Source: Candidatus Binatia bacterium (lineage in GTDB: Bacteria; Desulfobacterota; Binatia; HRBIN30). From it: a stretch of 64,000 nucleotides of DNA. Shown here piece after piece: positions 3,327 to 51,458 of this stretch. The position numbers and the translations under genes were made by a program. The notes under the pieces were generated by a model that did not search any database, was not told the DNA's origin, and saw nothing but the letters and a program-made list of their open reading frames with translations. Within the stretch, counting starts at the first letter, position 1. The number at the start of each line of letters is the position of its first letter. The DNA lies in assembly GCA_026415395.1 (NCBI GenBank), contig JAOAHD010000007.1, forward strand, positions 715,304 through 779,303, written 5' to 3'.

Positions 3327-4412
3327 TTACCGTCCCTGTTGTTTGCGGCTCGGTAACACGGCGGTCGGAAGGCTGCCGTGCTTGGCGATCAGTCGGCCAG
3401 AGAAGCTTAAAGTCGTGCGTGCGTGCTCCCAGGCAGTGCGCAGCGGTTTGCGAAACAACAGATTGAATTCCAGCATCGGGCCAACCACACACTGCGTGCA
3501 CGGCGTATCTCGGTCCCAGCTCTGCGTCCACTCCTCCGTGAGTAAATCGATGCCTTTGGTCTTGCCCTTGGTGTACGCGCAAGGGTAAGCGACACCCTGC
3601 GGGTCGATGTACAGGTAGCCGCGTCCTGCCGCGCAACGGACGTGAGCCTGATAGACTGCCGAGACTGCGAAGTCGGGCCAGGCACTCAATGCCTCCAGGT
3701 ACGGGGTCGAACTTGCGATCGGGCGGCCGCGGCGTTTTTCGTCGGCCAGCAGGCGCCAAAATTGTTGCCACTCCGCCGGTGACACCGATCCTGTCGGCTT
3801 GCCGCGCACCAGCTCGGTATCGACACACTGCGGCTGAAAATGCACTCGAAAACCGGCATCCTCGGCAATTTGGAGCAGCGGCTCGACCGCCGTGAGATTC
3901 CGTTCCGTTACGACGCAAATCGCCACCACCGGCACGCCAGCGCGAACTAAGGTGCGGGCAGCGTTGACGACACGGCCGGCGTTCGGGTCGCCCCGTGTTG
4001 CTGCGTGCACCGCCGGTGGGCCATCCAAACTCGTATACACGAGGTTGGCATCGTACAGGCAACTTCCTCGCCGCTCGAATAGCGATAGGTTCGAATTCAC
4101 GCTGATCCAGAAGCCGACTTCACGGGCCGTACGCACGATTTGTGGAAAATCGGCTCTGAGCAAGGGCTCGCCTCCCGCCAACCCTAGGCGTCGGATGCCC
4201 ATGCGGCGTAACCGCTGAAAGAGCAGGCGAATTTGCCCGAGATCGAGCTCGGTTGGATCGAGAAATGGGGAGTTACAGTAACTGCAGCGCAAGTTGCAGC
4301 GATTCGTGACCGCGAAGGTGGCAGAGAACGGGCGGGGGGAACCGTCGATGTAAAACGCCAACAGGCTCCGTGCGTAGGCAGAGGCGAGCGCAACTGTGTT
4401 AAACACCGACAT
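3327..4412 (-). CDS. radical SAM enzyme with C-terminal SPASM/twitch-like Cys cluster
   Basis: It carries the CxxxCxxC motif CNLRCSYC followed by GGEPLL. The C-terminal cysteines CAAGRGYLYIDPQGVAYPC...CTQC resemble a SPASM/twitch auxiliary cluster. Its start overlaps the upstream UbiA stop by 14 bp, which suggests an operon. Confidence 0.75.
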   Translation of the reverse strand: MSVFNTVALASAYARSLLAFYIDGSPRPFSATFAVTNRCNLRCSYCNSPFLDPTELDLGQIRLLFQRLRRMGIRRLGLAGGEPLLRADFPQIVRTAREVGFWISVNSNLSLFERRGSCLYDANLVYTSLDGPPAVHAATRGDPNAGRVVNAARTLVRAGVPVVAICVVTERNLTAVEPLLQIAEDAGFRVHFQPQCVDTELVRGKPTGSVSPAEWQQFWRLLADEKRRGRPIASSTPYLEALSAWPDFAVSAVYQAHVRCAAGRGYLYIDPQGVAYPCAYTKGKTKGIDLLTEEWTQSWDRDTPCTQCVVGPMLEFNLLFRKPLRTAWEHARTTLSFSGRLIAKHGSLPTAVLPSRKQQGR

Positions 4413-5268
4413 CCAAACGACTCAAAATGACGAGCCACAACCCACCAAAGTAAACTTTGGTGAGTAGCCACGCTGCGTTGCGGCTGGCGACGAGATAATA
4501 GGGGGCCACCGGTGTGAAGGCCGACAATGCCCCTCCCCACGGCAACTGGAAGTAGCCGGAGAGCACGACTGCCAAAAACCCACAGAGTACGAGGAGTGTG
4601 ATCGGTACAGCCGTCGCGGTGCGGGCGGCAATCGTGCCGATGCCGTTACGCGCGTCCACGCTGCGATCGACGAGGGTTTGATACACGTGGCACACCGCAG
4701 TCATAATGCCGACGAGCACAAGGATCTCGCTGCCTGTGCCGATCATGGCGGTGTAGGTGGCGCCCCAAATGCCGCACCAAATCACGTCGACGACGGGTAC
4801 GCCCTTGAGGACCAGGGAGTACGACACGTTGACAGCGAACAGCGCGACCACCGCCAGCAGCAGTGACGTGCCTCCTGCCGTGAGAGCGAGCAAGGCACAG
4901 AGCAAGTGTAACCCGACCAGTGCGGCCGCAGTGGCCGTACGCTGCGCTAGATACAACTCGACGAGCCAACGCTGCTTGCGGGGATTGTGGATGTCGGCTT
5001 TCGCGTCCCAGAAGTCGTTGAAGCCGTAAAGCGCAGCCAGGGTCAGTACCGAAAGGGCTGCCAACTGGGCCTTCGCCGCCAAGGTTCCACTGGCCACTGC
5101 CAGGAGGGATAAGTTGATCGCGAGCAATGCCCCCTCGAAGCGTTTGATCCGCTCCGCGAGCGAACCGAGGATTGCGAACGCGGCACGAGCTGCCCCAAGA
5201 AGTTCCGCATCGCTGGCGCCTTCGCGCTGGGCGCCACTTTTCGTCGCCGACTCGAGCACCGAGGCCAT
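4399..5268 (-). CDS. UbiA-family aromatic/isoprenoid prenyltransferase (polytopic membrane)
   Basis: The first Asp-rich motif is NDFWDAKAD (NDxxDxxxD) and the second is DRSVDARNGIGT. The protein has multiple hydrophobic helices. Confidence 0.7.
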   Translation of the reverse strand: MASVLESATKSGAQREGASDAELLGAARAAFAILGSLAERIKRFEGALLAINLSLLAVASGTLAAKAQLAALSVLTLAALYGFNDFWDAKADIHNPRKQRWLVELYLAQRTATAAALVGLHLLCALLALTAGGTSLLLAVVALFAVNVSYSLVLKGVPVVDVIWCGIWGATYTAMIGTGSEILVLVGIMTAVCHVYQTLVDRSVDARNGIGTIAARTATAVPITLLVLCGFLAVVLSGYFQLPWGGALSAFTPVAPYYLVASRNAAWLLTKVYFGGLWLVILSRLDVGV

Positions 5269-38618: not shown

Positions 38619-39953
38619 TTACACGCCCAGCAACAAGCGCGCCGGATCCTCGATGCGTTCCTTCACGCGGACGAGAAACGTCACCGCTTGCTCTCCATCG
38701 ACGAGCCGATGGTCGTAGGACAACGCTACATACATCATCGGGCGAATGACAATTTGGTCGTCCACTACCACGGGGCGTTTTTCGATTTTGTGCATCCCGA
38801 GGATCCCGCTTTGTGGTGGGTTGAGAATTGGCGTAGATAACAACGAGCCGAACACGCCGCCGTTGGTGATGGTGAAGGTGCCGCCGCTGATTTCTTGGAT
38901 GCTCAGTTTCCCTTCGCGCGCTCGTGTGGCTAGCCGCTCGATTTCGGCTTCGATCTCGGCAAACGATCGCTGGTCGGCATAGTGGATCACGGGCACGACC
39001 AGGCCACGTTCCGTGGCCACGGCAATGCCGAGGTGCACGTGCTTGTGGTAGACGATGTCGTCGCCGTCGATAAACGCGTTGACCACGGGAATTTCTTGCA
39101 GCGCGGCCACGCAGGCTTTGGCGAAAAACGACATGAAGCCGAGGCTAACTCCGTAGCGTTTTTGAAATCGCTCGCGGTATTGGGAACGCAAGGCCATGAC
39201 CGCACTCATATCGATTTCATTGAAGGTGGTGAGGATGGCGGCGGTGTGCTGCGCTTGCACCAATCGTTCGGCAATGCGCTTGCGCAGGTGGGTCATGGGT
39301 ACGCGCTCCTCCTCTGCGGCTGCCGGGCGCGGGATGGTTGGAGATGGTGGTGGGGGCTGAGGTGGGGCTTCCGCCCGCGAGGGCTCTCCGGAGAGCGCCG
39401 GGCTTGGAGGGGGTGAGCCCGGCGCCGCTGGCGCGGCGGCCGCCACTTTGGGCCCAGGCGCAGTCTCACGTCGTTGGTCGAGGTAGGCGAGTACGTCGGC
39501 TTTTGTCAGACGGCCTCCTTTGCCAGTGCCGGGAATTTGGCTGGCATCGAGCCCATGCTCTTCGATGAGCCGGCGCACGGCTGGACTGAGCAAGTGTGCC
39601 GCACTTCTTCCCTCGCTTGGGGGGCCTTGGGTTGCTTCTGCCGAGGCTGGCGCTCGCGCTACGTCCCTCGGCGGAGCCGCAAGCTCGGTTGGCGGTGACG
39701 TGGCAAGGCCTTCTCCCGCCTGGGTGTCGATGGTTGCGACCACTGCACCCACCTGCACCGTGGATCCTTCCGGCTGAACAATGTGCAGCACGCCGGCGGC
39801 GTTTGCCGGAATCTCTACGCTCGCCTTGTCGGTTTCGAGCTCCAAAATGGGCTCGTCAACCTGAACGCGCTCCCCTTCCTTCTTGATCCACCGTACGATC
39901 ACGCCTTCGGTGATCGACTCGCCTAACGACGGAATCCGTACCTCAACGGGCAT
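38619..39953 (-). CDS. sucB: 2-oxoglutarate dehydrogenase E2, dihydrolipoyllysine succinyltransferase
   Basis: It has an N-terminal lipoyl domain (..[12 protein letters not shown]..), an Ala/Pro linker, and a catalytic domain ..DHRLVDG.. . Confidence 0.9.
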
Positions 39954-42753
39954 AGGTCCTCCGCAACGCAGCGTTGATCAGCTCCTGCTCCTCGCTTTGG
40001 TGCACCTTGTAGACGCCGGTTGCGGGGCTCGCCGCTGGCTTCCTACCCGCGTAGAGGATCGGTCGATCTTTCCCGACCATGCGCAAAAGATGTCGAAACA
40101 TTTCGTTCCACGCACCCATATTTTGCGGCTCTTCCTGTGCCCACATGAGCTCAGCGCGCTCGGGGTAGAGGTCCAGAAACGTGCGCAGCTCCTTTTCCGG
40201 AAAGGGGTAGAGTTGTTCGATCCGAACAAAGGCGATGTCATCGATATCGCGCTCGCGGCGCGCGACGAGCAGGTCGTAAAAAATTTTGCCACAACACAAA
40301 ATCACTCGGCGCACCTTGGCGGGGTCGATCGGGTCGACGTCGCCGAGAACCGGTTGGAAGGTACCCTCGGTGAAATCCTTTACCGGGGAGACGCACAGTT
40401 TGTGGCGGAGCAAGCTCTTCGGTGTCATGAGCACGAGCGGCTTGCGGAAATTGCGATGAATTTGTCGGCGCAGTGCGTGGAAGTACTGTGCCGGCGTTGT
40501 GAGGTTGCATACTTGAATGTTTTTCTCAGCGCAGAGTTGCAGGAAACGTTCGAGCCGTGCGCTGGAGTGTTCGGGTCCTTGGCCTTCGTAGCCGTGCGGT
40601 AGCAGGAGCACGAGCCCGCTCATCTTTTGCCACTTGGATTCGGCCGCCACGATGAATTGATCGATCATCACCTGGGCGTTGTTGGCGAAATCGCCAAACT
40701 GTGCTTCCCACAGGACCAAGTTGCGCGGGTCAGCAGAGCTGAAGCCGTACTCGAACCCAAGAACGGCGAGTTCCGATAGCATCGTATCGATCACCGTGAA
40801 GCGCCCTTGCCGCTCCGCCAGGTGATCGAGGGGGACGTAGCGGGAGCCGTTTTGCACGTCGTACCAAACGGCGTGGCGCTGACTGAATGTGCCGCGCCCG
40901 CTGTCTTGCCCGGCGAGCCGCACATGGGTCCCTTCCAACAGCAGGGAGCCGAAGGCGAGCATCTCTGCCGTTGCCCAGTCCACTTGCCCTTCGCCGTGCA
41001 ACATCTCGATGCGTTGTTCGTATAGGCGGCGCACTTTGGGATGCACCGCAAATCCCTCCGGGGCGAGGGCCGCTTTGCGGACAATTTCTTCGAGCCGCTC
41101 GCGCGGCACCGCGGTGTGCGCGCTCCAGTCATCACCGGCCCAACGCATGCCTTTCCAAACGCCGCCGAACACAAACACTTGCTGCCGGGGCATGAAGTCC
41201 CGCGCGTAATTCAAGGCGTCTTCGAACAACTCGCGTAGCGAGGCAGCGTATCCTTCCAATTCCTTCTCTTGGACCACTCCGGCGGCCAGCAAGCGCTGCG
41301 CGTACAATTTCCGCACCGTAGGGTGTGCCTCGATCTGGCGGTAGAGAGTGGGTTGCGTGAAGGTGGGGTCGTCGGTTTCGTTGTGACCGTGTCGACGATA
41401 ACACACCAGGTCAATAAACACGTCTTTCTTAAACCGTGCCCGGAACGCTGCGGCTAACCGGGCGGCTTGAATCGCTGCTTCAGGATCGTCGGCGTTCACA
41501 TGGAAAATCGGTGCGTGGAGGAACTTGGCGAGGTCGGTGGGGTAGCGGGTGGGCCGGAAGTACTCGGGCGGCGTCGTGAAGCCAATTTGGTTGTTGATGA
41601 TGATGTGAATGGTTCCGCCCGTGCGGTAGTCGCGGAGCTCGGAAAGGGCGAGGGTTTCTGCCACGATTCCCTGGCCGCAAAACGCGGCATCCCCGTGCAG
41701 CACGACCGGCTGCACGCGCGAGCCATCGGTGTCGCCCATGTAGTGCTGTTTCCCGCGCACGATGCCTTCGACCACCGGATCGATGGCTTCCAAGTGGCTC
41801 GGGTTCGAGCACAAGGAAAGATGCATCTTGTGGCCGCTGCGGGTAACGATGTCCTTCGAGTAGCCCAGGTGATACTTCACGTCGCCATCGCCCGGCACGT
41901 GCGCCGGCAGGCGCGTACCCTCGAATTCGGCAAAGATCATCTCGTAAGGCTTGCGCAAAATGTGGGCGAGTACATTGAGCCGGCCGCGATGCGGCATGCC
42001 CATGACAATTTCCTCTACGCCCTGCCGCCCGGATTCCTCCACAATCTCGTCCAGCAGCGGGATCAGGGCTTCGGCACCTTCTAAGGAAAAGCGCTTTTGG
42101 CCCAGGTACTTCACTTGCAAAAACTGCTCGAAACTTTCCGCTTGGGTCAGGCGCTGGAGAATGTATTTGCGATCCTCGTTGGACAGCTCAGGTTCGTTCA
42201 GCGAGGGTTCCATGCGCTCTTGCAGCCAAGTGCGCTGTTCCTTGTCGTCGGTGTGCATGTACTCCACACCCAAGGTGCGGCAGTAAATGGCGCGCAGTCG
42301 CTCGATCACGTCCCGCAGGCGCCCGCGGGGAAAGCCCTTCAGCATGGGCGTTTCCACCACTCGGTCGAGATCGCCGTGAGAAAAACCGAACTCCGCTGGT
42401 TCTAGCAAAGGATGAGAGGACAGGTTGTTCCCCAAAGGGTCGAGGTTGGCAATTAAGTGGCCAATTTCGCGGTAGGAGTGCACGAGGTTGTACACGCCGA
42501 TGTGCTGCGCGGGCGGAACCGCGATCTCGGCCGGCCGTCTGGCCGGCTCGCGGCGAGCCAGTTCGAAGCCGGCGAAAAACAGCGCCCATGACGAGTCCAC
42601 CGAATTCGGGTCACGTTGGTAGCGCTGGTACATCTCCTCGATGTATTCGGCATTGGCGCGGGAAAGGAAGTCGAGCTTTGTCACCGTTTGCCTCCTCGGT
42701 TCCCGAACATAGCAGCGGCCAACGCAATCAAAGCAGCTTGCCTCCATGGCCAT
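39943..42753 (-). CDS. sucA: 2-oxoglutarate dehydrogenase E1 component
   Basis: It is 936 aa with a TPP-binding region and directly precedes sucB with an overlapping stop/start. Confidence 0.9.
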
Positions 42754-43207
42754 CGTGGCTGCGCACGACGGCCAAAACCTCGGCTGGCGACGACGACCGT
42801 TTCAGTTCTGCCCGACAGCGCTCCGACTGCAGGAGCAGCGACAAGGACGACAAAAACTGCAGGTGTTCGGTTGCCAAGCTGTGCGCCGAGAGCACGAGCG
42901 CCACGATGGAGATCGGTAGGCCAAAGGCTACTTCGTACACAGCTCGCGGAGCGACCGCCAATGCGCAAGTAATGCGTTGCACGGCAGGGGTACGGACGTG
43001 GGGAATGCTTACGCCAATGTCCACCATCGCCGTACTGCTTTGGCGCTCACGCTGACAGATCGATGCGAGGGTTTCTTCCACCGCATCGGCCGGCAGTTCC
43101 GCAGTGGCAACGAGCCGCTCCAGCAGAGCTCGGACAGTACTCTCGAAGTCCGGCCACGATTGCCCGACAACCACCGCGCGCTCGTCTAAAACCTCGGCCA
43201 ACCGCAT
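42728..43207 (-). CDS. ptsN: PTS EIIA-Ntr-like (PtsN family) regulatory protein
   Basis: It has ..LDERAVVVG.. and ..GVSIPHVRT.. around the phospho-His region. ATG 43207 is preferred over TTG 43387, which overlaps a perfect palindrome. Confidence 0.6.
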   Translation of the reverse strand: MRLAEVLDERAVVVGQSWPDFESTVRALLERLVATAELPADAVEETLASICQRERQSSTAMVDIGVSIPHVRTPAVQRITCALAVAPRAVYEVAFGLPISIVALVLSAHSLATEHLQFLSSLSLLLQSERCRAELKRSSSPAEVLAVVRSHDGHGGKLL

Positions 43208-43382
43208 GAGTTTTCCGTTTGCCTGCAACCCCAAGAGAACGCAATTTTGCCGTGCGTTGCAAGGGACCGAACACCGCCGCCTCCACGAAGGCACTCCGTC
43301 AGCTGTTCTCCCTGCCGCAAAGAGCAGCGCCAGGCGCACCGACCCATTGCCCGAATCGTCGCGCCAGCGTTTGACGGCGAGA

Positions 43383-43396
43383 GGCAAACGTTTGCC
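43383..43396. promoter_or_regulatory. perfect palindrome GGCAAACGTTTGCC upstream of ptsN-like gene
   Basis: It is an exact 14-bp palindrome in the intergenic region between the Ada-Zn membrane protein stop and ptsN. Confidence 0.3.
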
Positions 43397-43420
43397 TGTC
43401 GCTCGGAGCGCTAGTTGGGG

Positions 43421-43792
43421 CTAACGGCTCGGGTCGTCCCCGCTGCCGGATGAGGGCGGTTCGACCTCGGTGTCCGCGCAGGTGCCACCGCACACCTTAC
43501 ACGGTACGCCACCGCTTGCTTTCGCCTGCGCGCGTTTGATCTTGATGCAGTTGCGCGTACACTTCAGCGCCCACTCGCACTTCAAGCAGTGGTATTTGAG
43601 CGAGCTCGTGTTGAAGGCGACGATTTCGTCATCGCTGTTCGTAGCCAGCGATGTGGCCGACGCGAGCCACACGAGAGCAACGATAGCAACGATCAGGTAA
43701 AAAATTTGCCGGCCCAGGGCTTTGCCGGGCGTTGGGCTCTGACCCGAGATCCGACGGTTCTGCCGTACACGAGTCACTGCTCCATCCCTCAT
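43421..43792 (-). CDS. membrane-anchored protein with Ada-type zinc-binding domain
   Basis: A TM helix IFYLIVAIVALVWLASATSLA is followed by ..KYHCLKCEWALKC...AKASGGVPCKVCGG, which resembles the Ada N-terminal metal-binding motif (YH..C....PC+.C). The longer start at 43942 is possible. Confidence 0.45.
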   Translation of the reverse strand: MRDGAVTRVRQNRRISGQSPTPGKALGRQIFYLIVAIVALVWLASATSLATNSDDEIVAFNTSSLKYHCLKCEWALKCTRNCIKIKRAQAKASGGVPCKVCGGTCADTEVEPPSSGSGDDPSR

Positions 43793-44024
43793 GGTGCGCT
43801 CGAGTGCTGGGCAACATCCAGCGCACAAGTGGCGCCCGCTGACAATTTGTTTTTTAGTTTCGTTCGGGGCGCTGACTTGCCTCTGGTGATGCGGTTGGCA
43901 CTGGAGCGCCGGGCTAGACGAAATTTTTTCGCGAACTTGCATTACATGGGCGTGGCCGCCGGCCTATGCATCCCGCCACAGAGGCTCGGGAGGCCAATAC
44001 TTTCTAGGGGCAAAGGATAGGAGC

Positions 44025-45818
44025 ATGGCGGGAGGTGAGCAGATAGCACGGGGTGCCGGTGTGGACACGTCCTTTGTGCTGCTGGGACACGATCGCCAGG
44101 AAGGCAGGTGGGTTCCCCAGCTCTTGGTGCAGGAGGGGAGTAGAGCGCGTTGTGCGCCTCGTTGGCGAGGCTTCGTTGCCGTGCTCGCTGTGTCTTTTGT
44201 TTTGGCGGCAGTAGCCGAAGGTCAGCTAATTTTTGTGAACGCGGCCGCAAGTGGGGCCAATAATGGATCGACGTGGAGCGACGCATTTACCAAGCTGCAA
44301 GATGCTCTTGCCGCGGCCTCCGCTGGGCAAGACATTTGGGTTGCCCGCGGCGTGTATTACCCGGACGAAGGTGGGGGGCAAACCAACAACGACCGCCTCG
44401 CCACCTTCCAGCTCAAAAATGGGGTGGGCGGCTTCGCCGGCGGGGAAAGTAGCCTCGCCCAACGCAACCAAGCCGTGAACATCACTGTTCTCAGTGGGGA
44501 CATCGACCAAAACGACACCGTCGATGCGAATGGCATCGTGTTGTCACATGCCGACATTGCCGGGGACAACAGTTATCAGGTCGTTAGAGGCAGCAACACG
44601 AACGCGTCCGCCACAGTCGATGGCTTCACGATCACGGGCGGACTGGCCAACGGGAGTGTCACTCCGTGTGGTACCGTGTGCGGGGCGGGAATGCTGAACG
44701 ACAACGGGAGTCCGACTCTGTTCAATCTCGTGTTTGCGGGTAATTTCGCGGCCAATGCAGGTGGGGACATGGCGAATGTCAATGGCAGTAGCCCGGTTTT
44801 AACGAACGTGAGGTTTTTTCAGAACCGCGCCGGGCAAGGGGGGCGGGATGGCAAATTTGGACGGGAGTAGCCCAGTGCTCCGTCAGGCGGTGTTTGTGGG
44901 CAATTTGGCCCAAGTCGGCAGCGGGGGGAACGGTGGGGGGGGATGTTCAACCTCAACTCCAGCCTGCCCCAGTTGACCAACGTGAACTTTGTCGGCAACG
45001 AGACGCTCGTGAATGGTGGGGGTATGTTCAACCAAAACAGCAGCGCTGCAACGCTCGAGAATACCGGATTTTTCGGCAACAGGGCGAGTTTCGGTGGTGG
45101 GCTTTACAACCTCGGGAGCAGCGACGCCGAGCTGGTGAACGTGGTGTTTTCGGGCAACTTGGCGTTTCGCTCTGGGGGCGGTAGCGGCGGGGGAATGTTG
45201 AACAACAGCAGCAGTCCGGTGCTGACCAACGTCACTATCGCGGGCAATGTGGCTGCGGGGTCCATCCAGCAAGGTGGAGGGATGCTGAATGGGAACGCTA
45301 GCCAGCCTGTGCTCGTGAATGTCATTTTGTGGGGGAATGTTGCGGCGAGCGCCAAGGAGATGTCGAACGTCGGGGGCAGTATGCCGCAAATTTCGTTCAG
45401 TCTCGTCGAGGGCTCGGGTGGGAGCGGGATTGGGTGGAATACTGCCTTTGGTGCAGATGGTGGGGGCAACTTGGATGCGGACCCCCTGTTTTCCGACCCT
45501 GATGGAGCAGACAACACGCCGGGCACGTTGGACGACGATTTGCGTTTACGATCCGGGTCACCAGCGATCGACGCCGGAAATAATAGCGCCCCTGGACTGG
45601 CCGGTATCACCACCGATTTTGCGGGTGGGCTTAGGTTCATGGAGGATCCGCTCACGTTCGACACGGGGCAGGGCTTGCCTCCAGTGGTGGATATGGGTGC
45701 CTTCGAGTTCCGCCGTGCGTTATCTGCTCGTGTTCCGGTGCAGAGCTTGTTCGCGCTGGTGCTCGGCGTGCTTGCGCTGCTCTTGGTGGCGCAGCGGAAA
45801 CTGTGGGCGAAAGGTTAG
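44025..45818 (+). CDS. Pmp-repeat / right-handed beta-helix (choice-of-anchor-type) surface protein, interrupted by two compensating frameshifts at poly-G tracts
   Basis: About ten 27-aa repeats of the form GGGM(L/F)N..SSP.LTNV.F.GN.A.. occur. The as-given frame 0 hits TAG at 44868. The repeat continues in the +1 frame (GGMANLDGSSPVLRQAVFVGNLAQVGSGGNGGGG) between G6 (44838-44843) and G8 (44935-44942), then returns to frame 0 at ATG 44943. The C-terminus reads ..DMGAFEF + hydrophobic helix + QRK. Confidence 0.7.
44690..45360 (+). repeat. tandem ~81-bp coding repeats (Pmp-type 27-aa units)
   Basis: Recurring ..ggcggggg(a)atgttcaac..agcagc..gtgctgaccaacgtg.. units occur within the beta-helix gene. 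They are protein-coding, not CRISPR. Confidence 0.6.
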
Positions 45819-45993
45819 AGTGGTGGTGACTCGCGCCGCGCCGGTGGTGGCGCGTGGCGTTGAAATTCAGAGGAAAAAGATAGGCTGAGCGAGCAGGGGG
45901 TAGCTCGAGATGCTGGCCCGCTGTGCTGCCCACGCGGGATCGGGATAGGGCGAGGGTAGGGTGGGGTGTTTCATAGAGCCCCTCTTGCCTGAG

Positions 45994-46013
45994 GGCGAAA
46001 ATTTGGCGAAAAC
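45994..46013. promoter_or_regulatory. direct repeat GGCGAAAA-N3-GGCGAAAA (GAAA-N7-GAAA) immediately upstream of imuA; candidate SOS/LexA-type operator
   Basis: It is an AT-rich direct repeat with 11-bp periodicity, 7-26 nt before the imuA start. It resembles the GAAC-N7-GAAC direct-repeat LexA boxes known upstream of imuA-imuB-dnaE2 cassettes in some lineages. Confidence 0.3.
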
Positions 46014-46019
46014 TGGGAC

Positions 46020-46739
46020 ATGCCCACGTTACCACAGTTTGCTCCAGCGGAATCGCGAGAAGAGCTGCTTCGGGCAATTGCCAAGGTACAGCGGGGATTG
46101 GTGGAGGAACCGATTGCCCGCTTGCCCTGTGGTGTGGCAGCCATCGATACCCTGCTCCAAGGTGGCTGGCCGCGCGGGCGGCTGAGCGAACTTTACGGCA
46201 CGCGTTCCTGTGGGAAGACCACTTTGGCTTTGCACCTGCTTGCGGCAGTGACGGGCCGGAGAGAAATCGGTGCATGGATCGATGCGGCCGATGCTGTTCA
46301 TCCGTTGTCGCTCGTGGCTGCGGGGGTGGATTTATCCCGCGTGCTTTGGGTGCGTCCGCGTTCGTTCCCGGAAGCGCTCCGCAGTGCCGAGGTTGTACTT
46401 TCTACGAAGGGGATTGCATTAGTGGTTCTCGACTGCGGTGAGCGCGCAGCGCGTTTCCCCAGTCGTGCCGCTTGGCTGCGGTTGCAACGTGCCGCAGCAC
46501 GGTCGCACGCTGTGTTGTTGCTGCTTGCGCCGCACAGTTTGGCTGGCAGTTTTGCTGCGTTGCGCTTGCGCCTACAAGCCAATGGAGGGCAGTGGGTGCG
46601 GGCTGGCCAGAGAGAGTTTTTAGAAGGGCTGCGGGCTTTTGTTGTTGTCGAGCGCAACCGCATCGGGCGTGAAAACCAGCGGCTCGGTTGGGAGGTGCGT
46701 TGGCCGTCTGCTGTCGGTAGCGCGGGGCTGGGTGTGTAA
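46020..46739 (+). CDS. imuA: ImuA (SulA/RecA-fold protein of the mutagenesis cassette)
   Basis: It has ..LPCGVAAIDTLLQGGWPRGRLSELYG..GKTTLALHLLA.. . It is the first gene of the cassette and is followed by imuB and dnaE2. Confidence 0.75.
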   Translation: MPTLPQFAPAESREELLRAIAKVQRGLVEEPIARLPCGVAAIDTLLQGGWPRGRLSELYGTRSCGKTTLALHLLAAVTGRREIGAWIDAADAVHPLSLVAAGVDLSRVLWVRPRSFPEALRSAEVVLSTKGIALVVLDCGERAARFPSRAAWLRLQRAAARSHAVLLLLAPHSLAGSFAALRLRLQANGGQWVRAGQREFLEGLRAFVVVERNRIGRENQRLGWEVRWPSAVGSAGLGV

Positions 46740-46775: not shown

Positions 46776-48257
46776 GTGCGGATTGCCTGTCTTTATGTTC
46801 CCGAATTTCCCTTGGCTGCGTGGCTGCGCGCCGAACCCGAACTGCGCACGCAAGCAGTCGTTGTTGTGGAGCGACTCGATCCGCGCAGCCCCCTGTTAGC
46901 AACATCGCGCGCTGCATGGCGCTGGGGCATTGGCCCCGGCATGCGACTCAGCCAAGCACAGAGCCTGTGCCGCACGTTGGTGGTTCGGCCCTGCAGTCGC
47001 TTGTTGCAAGAAAGTGCCCGCGCCGCACTGATGGACGCCGCTAGTTCTTGCTCTCCCTTGGTCGAGCCCGCAGAGGACGGCGTGGTGTACATCGGTCTAG
47101 AAGGGCTCATTGGCCACTGGTGTCGTACGGAGACCCAATGGGCAAGCCAACTCTCTGCACGTTGCGAACGCCTCGGCGTGCCGGCCCGCGTAGCAGTAGC
47201 CAGCACGAAAACGGCAGCCTTGCTGGCTGCGATGCGCCGAGAAGGCGTAACGGTGTTGGACCCAGCGGAAGAAGCCACTTTTCTTGCGCCGGTACCGATT
47301 GCGGCTTTGCGCCCGAGCCCACCCTTGCTTGCTACCTTGGAGCGCTGGGGTATCCACACCATCGGCCAACTCGTGCAACTCCCCTTGGAGGCTGTAGGCA
47401 CGCGCTTGGGGCCGGAGGGGATTGCGCTGATCCGCCGCGCTCGCGGAGAAGAGCTCCAGCCATTGCAACCGCGTCCGTGTCCAATGGTGTTTGAGGAGGG
47501 CATGGAGTTCGATTACGAGATCGACTCTCTCGAACCTTTAACCTTCGTGCTGCGAGCGCTGCTCGACCGAGTCACGGCGCGCCTGGTAGCACGTGGGTTT
47601 GCCTGTGCAGCCTTGCAACTGGGCATGCATTTGTCGGGCACAGGTTGGGAGGATCGCACAGTTGCCGTGGCATACCCAAACAACGAGGTCAAAGCCCTGC
47701 TCGCCTTGTTGCGTGTGCATCTCGAGCAGCAGCCTCCGCAAAATGCCATCGATGCCGTACGGTTGCGGGCGCGCCCCGAGATGCTGCGTGCAAGTCAGCT
47801 CGACTTATTTCGCCCGCCAGGCCCACCCTCGGCTAGCCTGGCCGCCATGCTCGCACAACTTTCCGCTTTGTGTGGCAGCGAGCGCGTGGGAAGCCCAACG
47901 GTGTTGGCCACGCATCGTCTCGACGGTGACGGCATGGTCCCCTTCGGCACGCGCGGGAACTGGCAGAGCGCCGCGCCTCCCCCGAGCGCACTACCACCAC
48001 TGGCCTTGCGCCGTTTTCGCCCGCCGCTTCCCGTGAAAGTGTTTTCCGAGCGTGAACGGCCGGAGTTCGTGCGCGGTCCTGGATTCGGTGGTCGCGTAGT
48101 GTCCTGGGGTGGCCCGTGGCGCATCCGTACGGAGTGGTGGAGCGAAGCGACGTATGTGCGCGATTACTACGACGTGCAACTGAGCGACGGTGGGCTTTAC
48201 CGCCTCTTTCGCGATGAGCAACGGCAACAATGGTTTGCGGATGGGGTGTATGACTGA
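46776..48257 (+). CDS. imuB: ImuB (catalytically inactive Y-family polymerase-like protein)
   Basis: The N-terminus MRIACLYVPEFPLAAWLRAEPELRTQAVVVVE is typical of ImuB, with Y-family fold spacing. It is 493 aa. Confidence 0.8.
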   Translation: MRIACLYVPEFPLAAWLRAEPELRTQAVVVVERLDPRSPLLATSRAAWRWGIGPGMRLSQAQSLCRTLVVRPCSRLLQESARAALMDAASSCSPLVEPAEDGVVYIGLEGLIGHWCRTETQWASQLSARCERLGVPARVAVASTKTAALLAAMRREGVTVLDPAEEATFLAPVPIAALRPSPPLLATLERWGIHTIGQLVQLPLEAVGTRLGPEGIALIRRARGEELQPLQPRPCPMVFEEGMEFDYEIDSLEPLTFVLRALLDRVTARLVARGFACAALQLGMHLSGTGWEDRTVAVAYPNNEVKALLALLRVHLEQQPPQNAIDAVRLRARPEMLRASQLDLFRPPGPPSASLAAMLAQLSALCGSERVGSPTVLATHRLDGDGMVPFGTRGNWQSAAPPPSALPPLALRRFRPPLPVKVFSERERPEFVRGPGFGGRVVSWGGPWRIRTEWWSEATYVRDYYDVQLSDGGLYRLFRDEQRQQWFADGVYD

Positions 48258-48302
48258 CAGCGCTCGTGTTCGGGACATGCTTTGCCGGAAAGGGCAGCAA
48301 CG

Positions 48303-51300
48303 ATGAACTACGTCGAGCTCCGCTGTCATTCGGCATTTCACTTTCTCGCCGCCGCTTCCTTGCCGGAAGACCTCGTTGCCCGCGCGGCTGCTCTCGGGTA
48401 CGACGTGTGTGCTCTAGGCGATGCCGACGGCGTGTACGGTGCCCCGCGCTTTTACCGGGCCGCACGCGAGGCTGGGATCCGGCCGTTAGTGGGCTGTGAG
48501 TTGACACTACGGCGCTGGGGTGAGGAAGGCCAATCCACGCGCCGCCCGCCCACACACTTGTATGTGTTGGTGGCTACTCGCACAGGTTACAGCAATCTGT
48601 GCCGTTTAATCACCCAGAACAAGCGCAAGTTTCCCAAGGGGGCAGCCGTGCTCACATGGGAAGAATTGACGGGGTTTACCGATGGGCTCATTTGTCTGGC
48701 CCGCGACGCATTGTTTCCCGAACCGTTTTGCTTTGCCCCCGAAGCCCTGCAAACACTTCGCCGCTTGTTCCCTGGCCGTTTGTATCTCGAACTCCACCGC
48801 CACGGTGATCCGGCAGAGGAGCGCCACAACCGCATTCTGTGCGACGTGGCAGCCCGCTTCGGTGTGCCCCTCGTGGCCACCAACGACGTGCGTTACGCCG
48901 TACCCGAGCTGCAATCCCTCTGCGACGTGCTCACCTGCATTCGCCACCACACCACGATCGATGCCGCCGGATGGCTGCTCGAGCGCAATGCCGAGCGTTA
49001 CCTCAAACCGCCAGCAGAGATGGAGCAACTGTTCAGCGATTTTCCGGCGGCCGTCCGCAATACACGGGCGATTGCCGAGCAATGCGAATTTACCCTCGCC
49101 AACTTGGGTTATCGTTTCCCGGAATATCCCGTGCCGGCAGGGCAAACAGCGCAAGAGCATTTGCGGGAGTTGGTCTACCGCGGTGCGCGTGAAAGTTACC
49201 GTTGCCTGACGGCAAAAGTGCGGGGCCAGCTCGAACACGAGCTGCATGTAATCGGCAAACTCGGGTTAGCAGGATATTTTTTGATCGTTTGGGACATTGT
49301 TCGCTTTTGCCGCGAGCAAGGAATCCTCGCACAAGGGCGCGGCTCTGCCGCCAACAGTGCCGTATGTTACGCCTTGGGGATCACGGCAGTCGATCCGGTG
49401 GGGATGGAGCTTCTCTTCGAACGCTTCCTTTCGGAAGAACGGGGTGAATGGCCGGATATCGACATTGACCTTCCAAGCGGCGACCAGCGCGAGCGCGTGC
49501 TGCAGTATGTGTATGGCCGTTACGGTCCTCATGGCGCTGCCATGACCGCCAATGTGATCACCTACCGCTTGCGCAGTGCCGTGCGGGAAGTGGGGAAAGC
49601 GTTGGGGTTTTCGTTGGAGCAGCTCGACCGTTTGGCCAAGTTCCTTCACCGCTTCGAATTCCGTGATGCGCACGACAACGACCTCCCGGCTCACATGCAT
49701 GCGGCTGGGCTCGACCCACAGGCCCCCCGATCGCGTTTGCTCGTGCAACTCGTCGAGCGCATTTTGCACCTCCCGCGCCACTTGGGTCAGCATTCTGGCG
49801 GAATGATTATCGCGGCCGGGCGGCTCGACGAAATCGTGCCCTTGGAGCCCGCGCGCATGCCCGGGCGTGTGGTCGTGCAGTGGGACAAGGACGATTGTGC
49901 CGACCTTGGAATCATCAAGGTCGACTTGCTCGGCCTCGGCATGATGGCCGTTTTGGAGGAAGCGTTACCGCTGGTCCGCCAGCACGAAGGCGTGGAGATC
50001 GACCTCGCTCACTTGCCCCCCAACGACCCCAAAACTTACGCGCAACTGCAGCAAGCCGACACGGTCGGCGTCTTCCAAGTAGAAAGCCGCGCGCAGATGG
50101 CCACGTTGCCGCGTCTCCGGCCACGGTGTTTTTACGACTTGGTGGTGGAGGTGGCCCTGATCCGCCCCGGACCGATTGTTGGTCAAATGGTGCATCCTTA
50201 CCTGCGCCGCCGCGCCGGACGCGAACCGATTACGTACCCCCATCCGTCGCTCGAACCTATTCTGCGGCGCACCCTTGGGGTGCCGTTGTTTCAAGAACAG
50301 TTGCTACGTATTGCCATGACGGTGGCCGGCTTCTCGGGTGGCGAAGCCGAAGAGCTCCGGCGGGCCATGGGGTTTAAGCGCTCGCTCGAACGGATGCGCG
50401 CCATCGAAGCCAAACTGCGTGCCGGCATGGCTGCCCGCGGCATCGTCGGCAAAACGGCGGAAGAAATCGTGCGCAGCATTACCTCGTTTGCTCTTTATGG
50501 GTTCCCTGAATCACATGCTGCCAGCTTTGCCTTGTTGGCGTATGCTTCGGCATACCTCAAGGCACACCATCCCGCAGCGTTTACTTGCGCCTTGCTGAAC
50601 AATTGGCCCATGGGTTTTTATCACCCCGCTACCATTGTGAAGGATGCCCAACGCCACGGGGTGCGGGTGCTGCCGATCGATGTGACCCGCTCGACGTGGC
50701 GGTGCAGCTTGGAGCGGATGGCGGCTGGGGAGGGAAGCCGGCTTTGCTTGCGGCTCGGGCTCAAGTACGTGCGGGGTTTGCGCGCAGAAGCAGGCGAGCG
50801 CATTGTGCGGGAACGAGAAACAAAACCCTTTGCCTCGCTGGAGGATTTTGTTCATCGCTGTGCTTTGCGCGAGAGCGAGCTTGCCACGCTGGCGGAAATC
50901 GGGGCATTGGCAGCGTTCGGACACACGCGCCGGAGTGCCTTGTGGCAAGCCGCTGCTGTTGCGCGTGGCCCGCTGTTTGCCGCTGCAACCGAGCAAGACC
51001 ACAATAATGAAGTCGAGCCGAGCCCTCTGCCAGAGATGCTCCCCGTGGAGCGTACTTTGGCAGACTTAAAGGGAAGTGGCGTTACCGTTGGCCCGCATCT
51101 CATGGCACATTGGCGAGCGCAGCTCGAGGCACGAGGCTTTGTACCGGCACGCACTCTACCCCACTGCCACCACGGACAGTGGGTGAAAGTGGCGGGGCAT
51201 GTCATCGTCCGCCAACGCCCAGGTACAGCCAAGGGCTTTTGTTTTCTCACGCTGGAAGACGAAACTGGCTTGGCCAATGTGGTTCTGACCCCGGCATTCT

Positions 51301-51458
51301 TCGAACGGCACCGTACCTTGTTGCTCACCGCACCTTTGCTGGAAGTAGAAGGTTATTTGCAGCACGTCGATGGGGTCATTCACGTTCGTGCGCAAAGATT
51401 GCATCGCCTTGCGCTCTCCCAGGCACTCACCTCCTCTGAGCTCACAAGCGACGCATGA
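48303..51458 (+). CDS. dnaE2: error-prone DNA polymerase DnaE2 (ImuC)
   Basis: It starts with the PHP domain MNYVELRCHSAFHFLAAAS.. and is about 1050 aa of Pol III alpha homolog without a tau-binding tail. ATG 48303 is preferred. Confidence 0.9.
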   Translation: MNYVELRCHSAFHFLAAASLPEDLVARAAALGYDVCALGDADGVYGAPRFYRAAREAGIRPLVGCELTLRRWGEEGQSTRRPPTHLYVLVATRTGYSNLCRLITQNKRKFPKGAAVLTWEELTGFTDGLICLARDALFPEPFCFAPEALQTLRRLFPGRLYLELHRHGDPAEERHNRILCDVAARFGVPLVATNDVRYAVPELQSLCDVLTCIRHHTTIDAAGWLLERNAERYLKPPAEMEQLFSDFPAAVRNTRAIAEQCEFTLANLGYRFPEYPVPAGQTAQEHLRELVYRGARESYRCLTAKVRGQLEHELHVIGKLGLAGYFLIVWDIVRFCREQGILAQGRGSAANSAVCYALGITAVDPVGMELLFERFLSEERGEWPDIDIDLPSGDQRERVLQYVYGRYGPHGAAMTANVITYRLRSAVREVGKALGFSLEQLDRLAKFLHRFEFRDAHDNDLPAHMHAAGLDPQAPRSRLLVQLVERILHLPRHLGQHSGGMIIAAGRLDEIVPLEPARMPGRVVVQWDKDDCADLGIIKVDLLGLGMMAVLEEALPLVRQHEGVEIDLAHLPPNDPKTYAQLQQADTVGVFQVESRAQMATLPRLRPRCFYDLVVEVALIRPGPIVGQMVHPYLRRRAGREPITYPHPSLEPILRRTLGVPLFQEQLLRIAMTVAGFSGGEAEELRRAMGFKRSLERMRAIEAKLRAGMAARGIVGKTAEEIVRSITSFALYGFPESHAASFALLAYASAYLKAHHPAAFTCALLNNWPMGFYHPATIVKDAQRHGVRVLPIDVTRSTWRCSLERMAAGEGSRLCLRLGLKYVRGLRAEAGERIVRERETKPFASLEDFVHRCALRESELATLAEIGALAAFGHTRRSALWQAAAVARGPLFAAATEQDHNNEVEPSPLPEMLPVERTLADLKGSGVTVGPHLMAHWRAQLEARGFVPARTLPHCHHGQWVKVAGHVIVRQRPGTAKGFCFLTLEDETGLANVVLTPAFFERHRTLLLTAPLLEVEGYLQHVDGVIHVRAQRLHRLALSQALTSSELTSDA

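Follow-up and report, generated by a model that had tools for sequence, protein, structure and literature searches.

LexA motifs differ between phyla, and they are needed for each lineage before its SOS regulon can be predicted. Described examples are GAAC-N4-GTTC in Firmicutes and Actinobacteria, CTGT-N8-ACAG in Gammaproteobacteria and TGTTC-N4-GAACA in Verrucomicrobia, as well as the alphaproteobacterial direct repeat GTTC-N7-GTTC (equivalent to GAAC-N7-GAAC), which has also been reported for Acidobacterium capsulatum (PMC4951493). Direct-repeat LexA motifs arose more than once: those of Balneolaeota (TTACACATATTTTWTACATA) and Patescibacteria were obtained by motif discovery in lexA promoters and comparative genomics, and were validated by electrophoretic mobility shift assay (EMSA) (PMC7739468). 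For the Binatia, such an entry has been missing until now. Here, we describe a direct repeat that precedes the imuA-imuB-dnaE2 mutasome operon of a Candidatus Binatia bacterium, in a stretch of 64,000 nucleotides that was analysed as a whole and is referred to as the window in the following (GenBank assembly GCA_026415395.1, contig JAOAHD010000007.1, positions 715,304 to 779,303 of the forward strand), together with its counterparts in related genomes. Judging from its distribution, this repeat, located at positions 45994-46012 of the window, is very probably the LexA operator (SOS box) of the class Binatia (Desulfobacterota_B/Binatota).

Binatia are widespread, uncultivated bacteria of soil, sediment and sponges. 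Our literature search found no paper that links LexA with Binatia or Binatota or that describes the box, and a full-text search for the string GGCGAAAA returned only irrelevant primer and small interfering RNA matches. From 66 sites, 55 of them upstream of lexA and 11 upstream of imuA or dnaE2, we built a 25-nt matrix, which allows the in silico reconstruction of the SOS regulon for hundreds of Binatia metagenome-assembled genomes (MAGs). Its consensus is nATGGCGAAAATnnGGCGAAnnnGC; the bases G-G-C-G-A-A are essentially invariant in both repeats, and the half-sites follow each other with a period of strictly 11 bp in all 66 sites.

Like the alphaproteobacterial box, the Binatia box is a direct repeat with an 11-bp period and N7 spacing, and it is found in the promoters of both lexA and imuA-imuB-dnaE2. 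However, its bases read CGAA-N7-CGAA and not GAAC, and the GCC that belongs to the spacer in Alphaproteobacteria is invariant in Binatia. The counterpart of the essential G in GTTC varies among the downstream repeats (A18/C3/G21/T13), and in the other repeat it is mostly A on the GGCGAA strand, corresponding to T on the GTTC strand. With the Cheo box (CGAAC-N4-GTTCG), the Binatia box has in common the CGAA half-site core and the occurrence at lexA and mutasome promoters, but the Binatia half-sites are arranged directly, 11 bp from centre to centre, and the palindromic version occurs in none of the 66 sites. As the box is identical to neither of the two, we have filed it as a member of neither. 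The motifs of Balneolaeota and Patescibacteria resemble it in being direct repeats and in the approach by which they were discovered, whereas their sequences are unrelated and their validation was by EMSA. The box thus adds a case of direct-repeat LexA recognition, a phenomenon that is recurring and structurally unexplained (PMC7739468). If the LexA of Binatia did switch independently to a direct repeat, as considered below, the Cheo box and the Binatia box would form a clean natural pair for studying the binding of a symmetric LexA dimer to asymmetric direct repeats.

The direct repeat at imuA and dnaE2

The original prediction, made from the letters of the window, had singled out two AT-rich strings as related operator-like motifs, one upstream of a Pmp-like gene (43919-43931, motif 1) and one upstream of imuA (45994-46013, motif 2). 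Both strings are found at exactly these coordinates, and the gene labels agree with Pfam, which confirms imuA, imuB and dnaE2 and identifies the upstream gene as one for a right-handed beta-helix protein. Motif 2, GGCGAAAATTTGGCGAAAAC, contains an exact 8-nt direct repeat of the form GGCGAAAA-N3-GGCGAAAA with an 11-bp period. In the window, it reads GGCGAAAA-TTT-GGCGAAAA and is separated by 7 nt from the imuA start codon, an ATG at 46020. The half-site arrangement first proposed for it, GAAA-N7-GAAA, came close, but what is conserved is instead the core GGCGAA-N5-GGCGAA, which can be read as CGAA-N7-CGAA.

Two copies of an 8-nt word at a given close spacing are no rarity in 64 kb, and the significance of the repeat therefore had to be judged by conservation. 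We compared imuA loci whose ImuA proteins are 71, 67, 58, 58, 45 and 44% identical to that of the window. The 16 specified bases are identical (16/16) upstream of imuA in seven distinct orthologs, covering 44-71% ImuA identity, and the intergenic DNA that flanks them cannot be aligned among the relatives. The box was found upstream of imuA in eight distinct loci and also in front of stand-alone dnaE2 genes in two (L136, L139); its 16 specified bases show no change in front of imuA or dnaE2 in the window and in L002, L004, L007, L011, L014, L015, L132, L136 and L139. The imuA homologs are found within imuA-imuB-dnaE2 cassettes. In L011 and L014, imuA lies in an unrelated neighborhood, following genes for MTHFR and a formyltransferase and without an adjacent dnaE2; the box is kept despite this different context and thus accompanies imuA itself rather than a particular genomic site. 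By its conservation across these sequences, rather than by statistics within the window, motif 2 is far beyond chance.

The imuA and dnaE2 promoters also share a common architecture, which consists of TTG(C/A)Cn, 3-4 nt, GGCGAAAA-N3-GGCGAAAA, 6-9 nt and the ATG. Each of the imuA and dnaE2 promoters compared has TTGCC, TTGAC or TTGCT at a distance of 3-4 nt in front of the box, and the dnaE2 genes of L136 and L139 show the same succession of -35-like element, box and start, with dnaE2 beginning right after the box in L136. In the window, the putative -10-like hexamer at the 3' end of the second repeat, GAAAAC, follows the -35-like hexamer after 17 nt and precedes the imuA ATG by 6 nt; the relatives have GAAAAT, GAAAAG or GAAAAA in this register, 6-9 nt from the start codon. 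The conservation of the ImuA protein starts at the ATG at 46020, and the 5' untranslated region should therefore be very short or absent. This suggests that the imuA mRNA is leaderless or near-leaderless. Within the clade of the window, a 10-nt block, CCCTCTTGCC, is conserved at 45980-45989, with the same position in L002 (CCCTCTTGCT), L004, L007 and L015. It spans the -35-like element plus 5 nt upstream and is not conserved in more distant imuA promoters.

When the matrix is run across the window, it finds a single site above 10 bits, at position 45991 with 28.7 bits, and the runner-up, inside a gene, reaches 8.5 bits. For comparison, the training sites score 13-39 bits, with a minimum of 13. 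A scan of a genome collection with the strict 16-base pattern yielded at least 120 stretches, most of them chance matches and several inside coding sequence. Among those listed, four are at SOS genes (L132, L136, L139 and L143), of which L132 is a Binataceae imuA-imuB-dnaE2 cassette carrying the box. Four others (L150, L153, L204 and L211) present the pattern with near-identical flanks in unrelated genomes, where it apparently codes for the conserved peptide GIGEKTAKK, probably the helix-hairpin-helix motif of Pol I-type 5'-3' exonucleases; such coding stretches would explain part of the chance background. We used a scan of viral contigs only as a background control. Its 82 stretches comprise tandem 11-bp repeats, one redundant phage cluster and coding sequence, and none of them has an SOS context. 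In the viral and genome scans, several phage or viral contigs (L031, L038/L074, L065, L089, L116 and others) carry at least three 11-bp units in tandem that contain GGCGAAAA; these look like iterons and are unrelated to SOS genes.

The repeat in lexA promoters of related genomes

Given that LexA is autoregulated, the original prediction had named the lexA promoter, along with those of recA and uvrA, as a place where a genuine SOS box should recur. Neither lexA nor recA was found by phmmer in the window or in the imuA loci, and the collected sequences contain no recA; the check was run on related genomes. In L143, a Candidatus Binataceae MAG, the 16-base site precedes by 34-52 bp a canonical lexA, whose product has 201 amino acids. 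With this LexA as query, we gathered 80 lexA loci from metagenomes, whose LexA proteins are 52-99% identical to it, and almost all of them have the repeat upstream of lexA. For a non-circular test, the core GGCGAA-N5-GGCGAA was defined from the imuA sites alone. Of the 75 non-redundant Binatia-type loci, 55 have this core in the 200 nt that precede lexA (14,697 nt searched), against one match in the 322,570 nt elsewhere in those loci. The imuA-type repeat is therefore present at lexA, as had been anticipated, and the box co-occurs at lexA, imuA and dnaE2.

At lexA, the orientation of the box is constant and opposite to that at imuA, with TTCGCC...TTCGCC on the lexA strand. In 58 of 67 lexA promoters, it exactly fills the 17-nt spacer between the hexamers TTGnnn (TTGCGT, TTGCAG and others) and nAnnnT (CATCAT, CATGAT, CATTAT, TATACT and others), and the inverted box is followed by a normal leader with GGAGG. 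If these hexamers are the promoter elements they appear to be, this is where a repressor in competition with RNA polymerase would be expected to bind. A divergently oriented gene for a 2Fe-2S ferredoxin (4232-4621 on the minus strand in L143, and present in 38 further lexA loci) shares the box-bearing intergenic region. This gene is the neighbor of lexA in only 39 loci, and the box also occurs in loci that lack it; the box therefore tracks lexA and not the ferredoxin gene.

All LexA hits have the LexA_DNA_bind (PF01726) and Peptidase_S24 (PF00717) domains, and the VAAG cleavage site as well as the GQSM and VKK motifs can be read from the sequence of the L143 protein. The recognition helix, SLATVHKHLKNLE, is invariant across the motif-positive loci. 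It appears to be closer to the Gram-positive than to the alphaproteobacterial type, and it is similar to the helix of Bacillus subtilis LexA (...SSSTVHGHLARLE...). Covariation of this helix with the motif, which we had considered as a test of LexA specificity, proved uninformative, the helix being identical throughout and only a wing residue differing (NHSR versus NRSR). Five loci with LexA proteins of 55-60% identity (L287, L289, L290, L292 and L293) have no box upstream of lexA and the wing NRSR, not NHSR; their promoter spacers contain degenerate look-alikes, e.g. TTACGT-N5-TTCGCC. The most distant lexA loci (LexA identity 52-55%; L296 1195-1247, L297 2911-2963 and L295 582-634), one of them from a contig of 46% G+C, have a pair of oppositely oriented boxes at a distance of about 28 bp, with the relaxed half-site GCGAA(A/G). 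One of the two is located in the promoter spacer, TTGACT-17-TATATT/TATACT.

A probable LexA operator and its alternatives

Of the two strings put forward as the SOS box of this lineage, it is thus the repeat at 45994, invariant at imuA and dnaE2 and present in most lexA promoter spacers, that has held up, and the string at 43919 that has not. According to the mechanism we propose, LexA would bind as a dimer to the imuA promoter, where the two half-sites are arranged head-to-tail at a distance of one helical turn, and by blocking access for RNA polymerase it would hold the imuA-imuB-dnaE2 operon in the off state. DNA damage would then lead to RecA-stimulated self-cleavage of LexA and free the promoter. 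The second repeat would supply the -10-like GAAAAn at imuA and dnaE2, with the ATG 6-9 nt further on, and the imuA transcript would start at the ATG or within a few nucleotides of it. In related genomes, the inverted box in the 17-nt lexA spacer would provide for the usual autoregulation. The use of the box in either orientation fits steric repression and not oriented activation. The error-prone ImuA-ImuB-DnaE2 mutasome is probably damage-inducible in the organism of the window. On a more tentative note, it is quite possible, if somewhat short of probable, that Binatia are a further case in which LexA switched independently from a palindrome to a direct repeat. The protein would then combine a recognition helix of apparently Gram-positive type with half-sites that keep the CGAA core of the Cheo box but have come to lie head-to-tail, one helical turn apart, and at imuA and dnaE2 the operator would also serve as the -10 region of a leaderless promoter.

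Several points weigh against the assignment to LexA. The link to this protein comes from related genomes, the box at lexA and the box at imuA having been seen in separate genomes, and the motif-negative lexA loci, with LexA proteins of up to 60% identity, have the same recognition helix as the motif-positive ones; the helix alone therefore does not explain specificity. The specificity of the matrix in 598 kb of related loci, where matches of at least 12 bits occur essentially only at lexA, imuA and dnaE2 promoters, is a partly circular result because the matrix was trained on those sites. Furthermore, a consensus promoter scan calls no sigma-70-type promoter at imuA in the window. Its -10-like hexamer, GAAAAC, does not have the conserved final T (position 6), which is why the scan misses the putative promoter.

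The same helix in loci with and without the motif could also be taken to mean that the repeat is the operator of another regulator of lexA and the mutasome genes, for instance a damage-response repressor, a WYL/PafBC-like or an XRE-type protein. Such non-LexA regulators of the DNA damage response have precedents in other phyla, namely PafBC in Actinobacteria, DdrO in Deinococcus and DriD in Caulobacter. We nevertheless consider this unlikely, as the location of the box in the lexA promoter spacer and its association with lexA across changing neighbors are the classic signature of LexA autoregulation, as both orientations occur inside the 17-nt spacer, contrary to what an oriented activator would require, and as no candidate regulator gene is conserved beside imuA or lexA. 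Less probable still is a role as a core promoter or DNA-bending element made of two phased A-tracts, or as a 5' RNA element of the imuA transcript. AAAA tracts with an 11-bp period can indeed bend DNA, and the second repeat overlaps the presumed -10 element, whose promoter function may account for some of the conservation; yet GGCG is no less invariant than the A-tract, and the box is inverted at lexA between a well-formed -35 and -10, where it is neither a -10 element nor a strand-specific RNA. An RNA element is also at odds with the location of the repeat upstream of, or at, the likely transcription start and with the result of the Rfam search, which gave no meaningful match at either motif; no terminator-like site was found at either of them.

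The remaining alternative, that the string at 43919 and the repeat at 45994 are both SOS boxes and the beta-helix gene is damage-regulated, corresponds to the original prediction and is very improbable in the light of the following. Motif 1, CGAAATTTTTTCG, had been described as palindromic, and it does have two inverted 5-nt arms, CGAAA and TTTCG, around a 3-nt spacer, but it is not a full 13-nt palindrome. It can also be read as GACGAA-N7-CGCGAA, i.e. as two directly oriented hexamers that each match the half-site in five of six positions, in intergenic DNA about 94 bp upstream of the beta-helix open reading frame. However, the period of this arrangement is 13 bp, compared with 11 bp in all 66 sites, and its best matrix score is -8.5 bits, which is exceeded at 276 positions of the window. 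The syntenic locus L002 has no counterpart of it, neither upstream of the beta-helix ortholog nor downstream of the PTS-EIIA gene. The relatedness of the two motifs through a shared core was not borne out either: CGAAAWTTT occurs three times in the window, the third copy lying inside a dehydrogenase gene, against an expectation of 1.11, and 11 of 100 shuffles reach three. The sequence CGAAA-N3-TTTCG is present twice (0.12 expected), with the second copy inside a thiolase-like gene, and is absent from the related loci that were checked. The hairpin of motif 1 does not exceed those of shuffled sequences in stability (z = 0.66).

As a candidate SOS box, motif 1 thus fails in its matrix score, in its half-site spacing and in conservation at the orthologous promoter, and the suggested damage control of the beta-helix surface protein loses its support with it. 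Nor can motif 2 take this role, since it lies downstream of the beta-helix gene and therefore cannot regulate it. Nothing supports SOS control of this neighboring gene, and a false lead is thereby removed; motif 1 is most likely a chance AT-rich intergenic sequence in a divergent promoter region. The LexA operator upstream of imuA remains the reading that we prefer for the repeat.

Gene neighborhood of the box

The window has a G+C content of about 61%, and the features around the box are compiled in Table 1.

Table 1. Features around the direct repeat, in window coordinates.
Feature	Position	Strand	Remarks
sucA-like gene (2-oxoglutarate dehydrogenase E1)	39943-42753	-	
PTS-EIIA-like gene	42728-43387	-	
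AT-rich 5+5 inverted repeat, CGAAA-TTT-TTTCG (motif 1)	43919-43931	.	~94 bp upstream of the beta-helix open reading frame; judged not SOS
Right-handed beta-helix protein gene	44025-45818	+	
-35-like hexamer, TTGCCT	45985-45990	+	conserved upstream of the box; putative promoter role
Putative LexA operator (SOS box), core GGCGAA-N5-GGCGAA (motif 2)	45994-46012	+	conservation at imuA/dnaE2/lexA; matrix score
-10-like hexamer, GAAAAC (3' end of second repeat)	46008-46013	+	putative, from the register of relatives; weak here
imuA (RecA-fold mutasome accessory protein)	46020-46739	+	Pfam RecA/AAA_25; first gene of the operon
imuB (inactive Y-family polymerase)	46776-48257	+	Pfam IMS, IMS_C
dnaE2/imuC (error-prone Pol III alpha homolog)	48282-51458	+	Pfam PHP, DNA_pol3_alpha, finger, HHH_6, OB

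The PTS-EIIA-like gene and the beta-helix gene are separated by about 640 bp of intergenic DNA. An open reading frame of 173 codons on the minus strand (43421-43942), which overlaps motif 1, has no Pfam match and is probably spurious. As the PTS-EIIA ortholog in L002 has only 159 amino acids, the real intergenic region probably extends over 43390-44024 or more.

The beta-helix gene contains a single in-frame TAG at 44868-44870, and the open reading frames on its two sides, 44025-44870 and 44943-45818, share one frame. The ortholog in L002 (7917-9773, 618 amino acids) aligns across the TAG in one frame with 63% identity. The TAG could mark a pseudogene, or could be due to a sequencing error in a G-rich stretch or to read-through. 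In another relative (L009, 813-2814), a clustered regularly interspaced short palindromic repeats (CRISPR) adaptation module, consisting of a Cas4-Cas1 fusion and Cas2, is located about 5 kb upstream of imuA.

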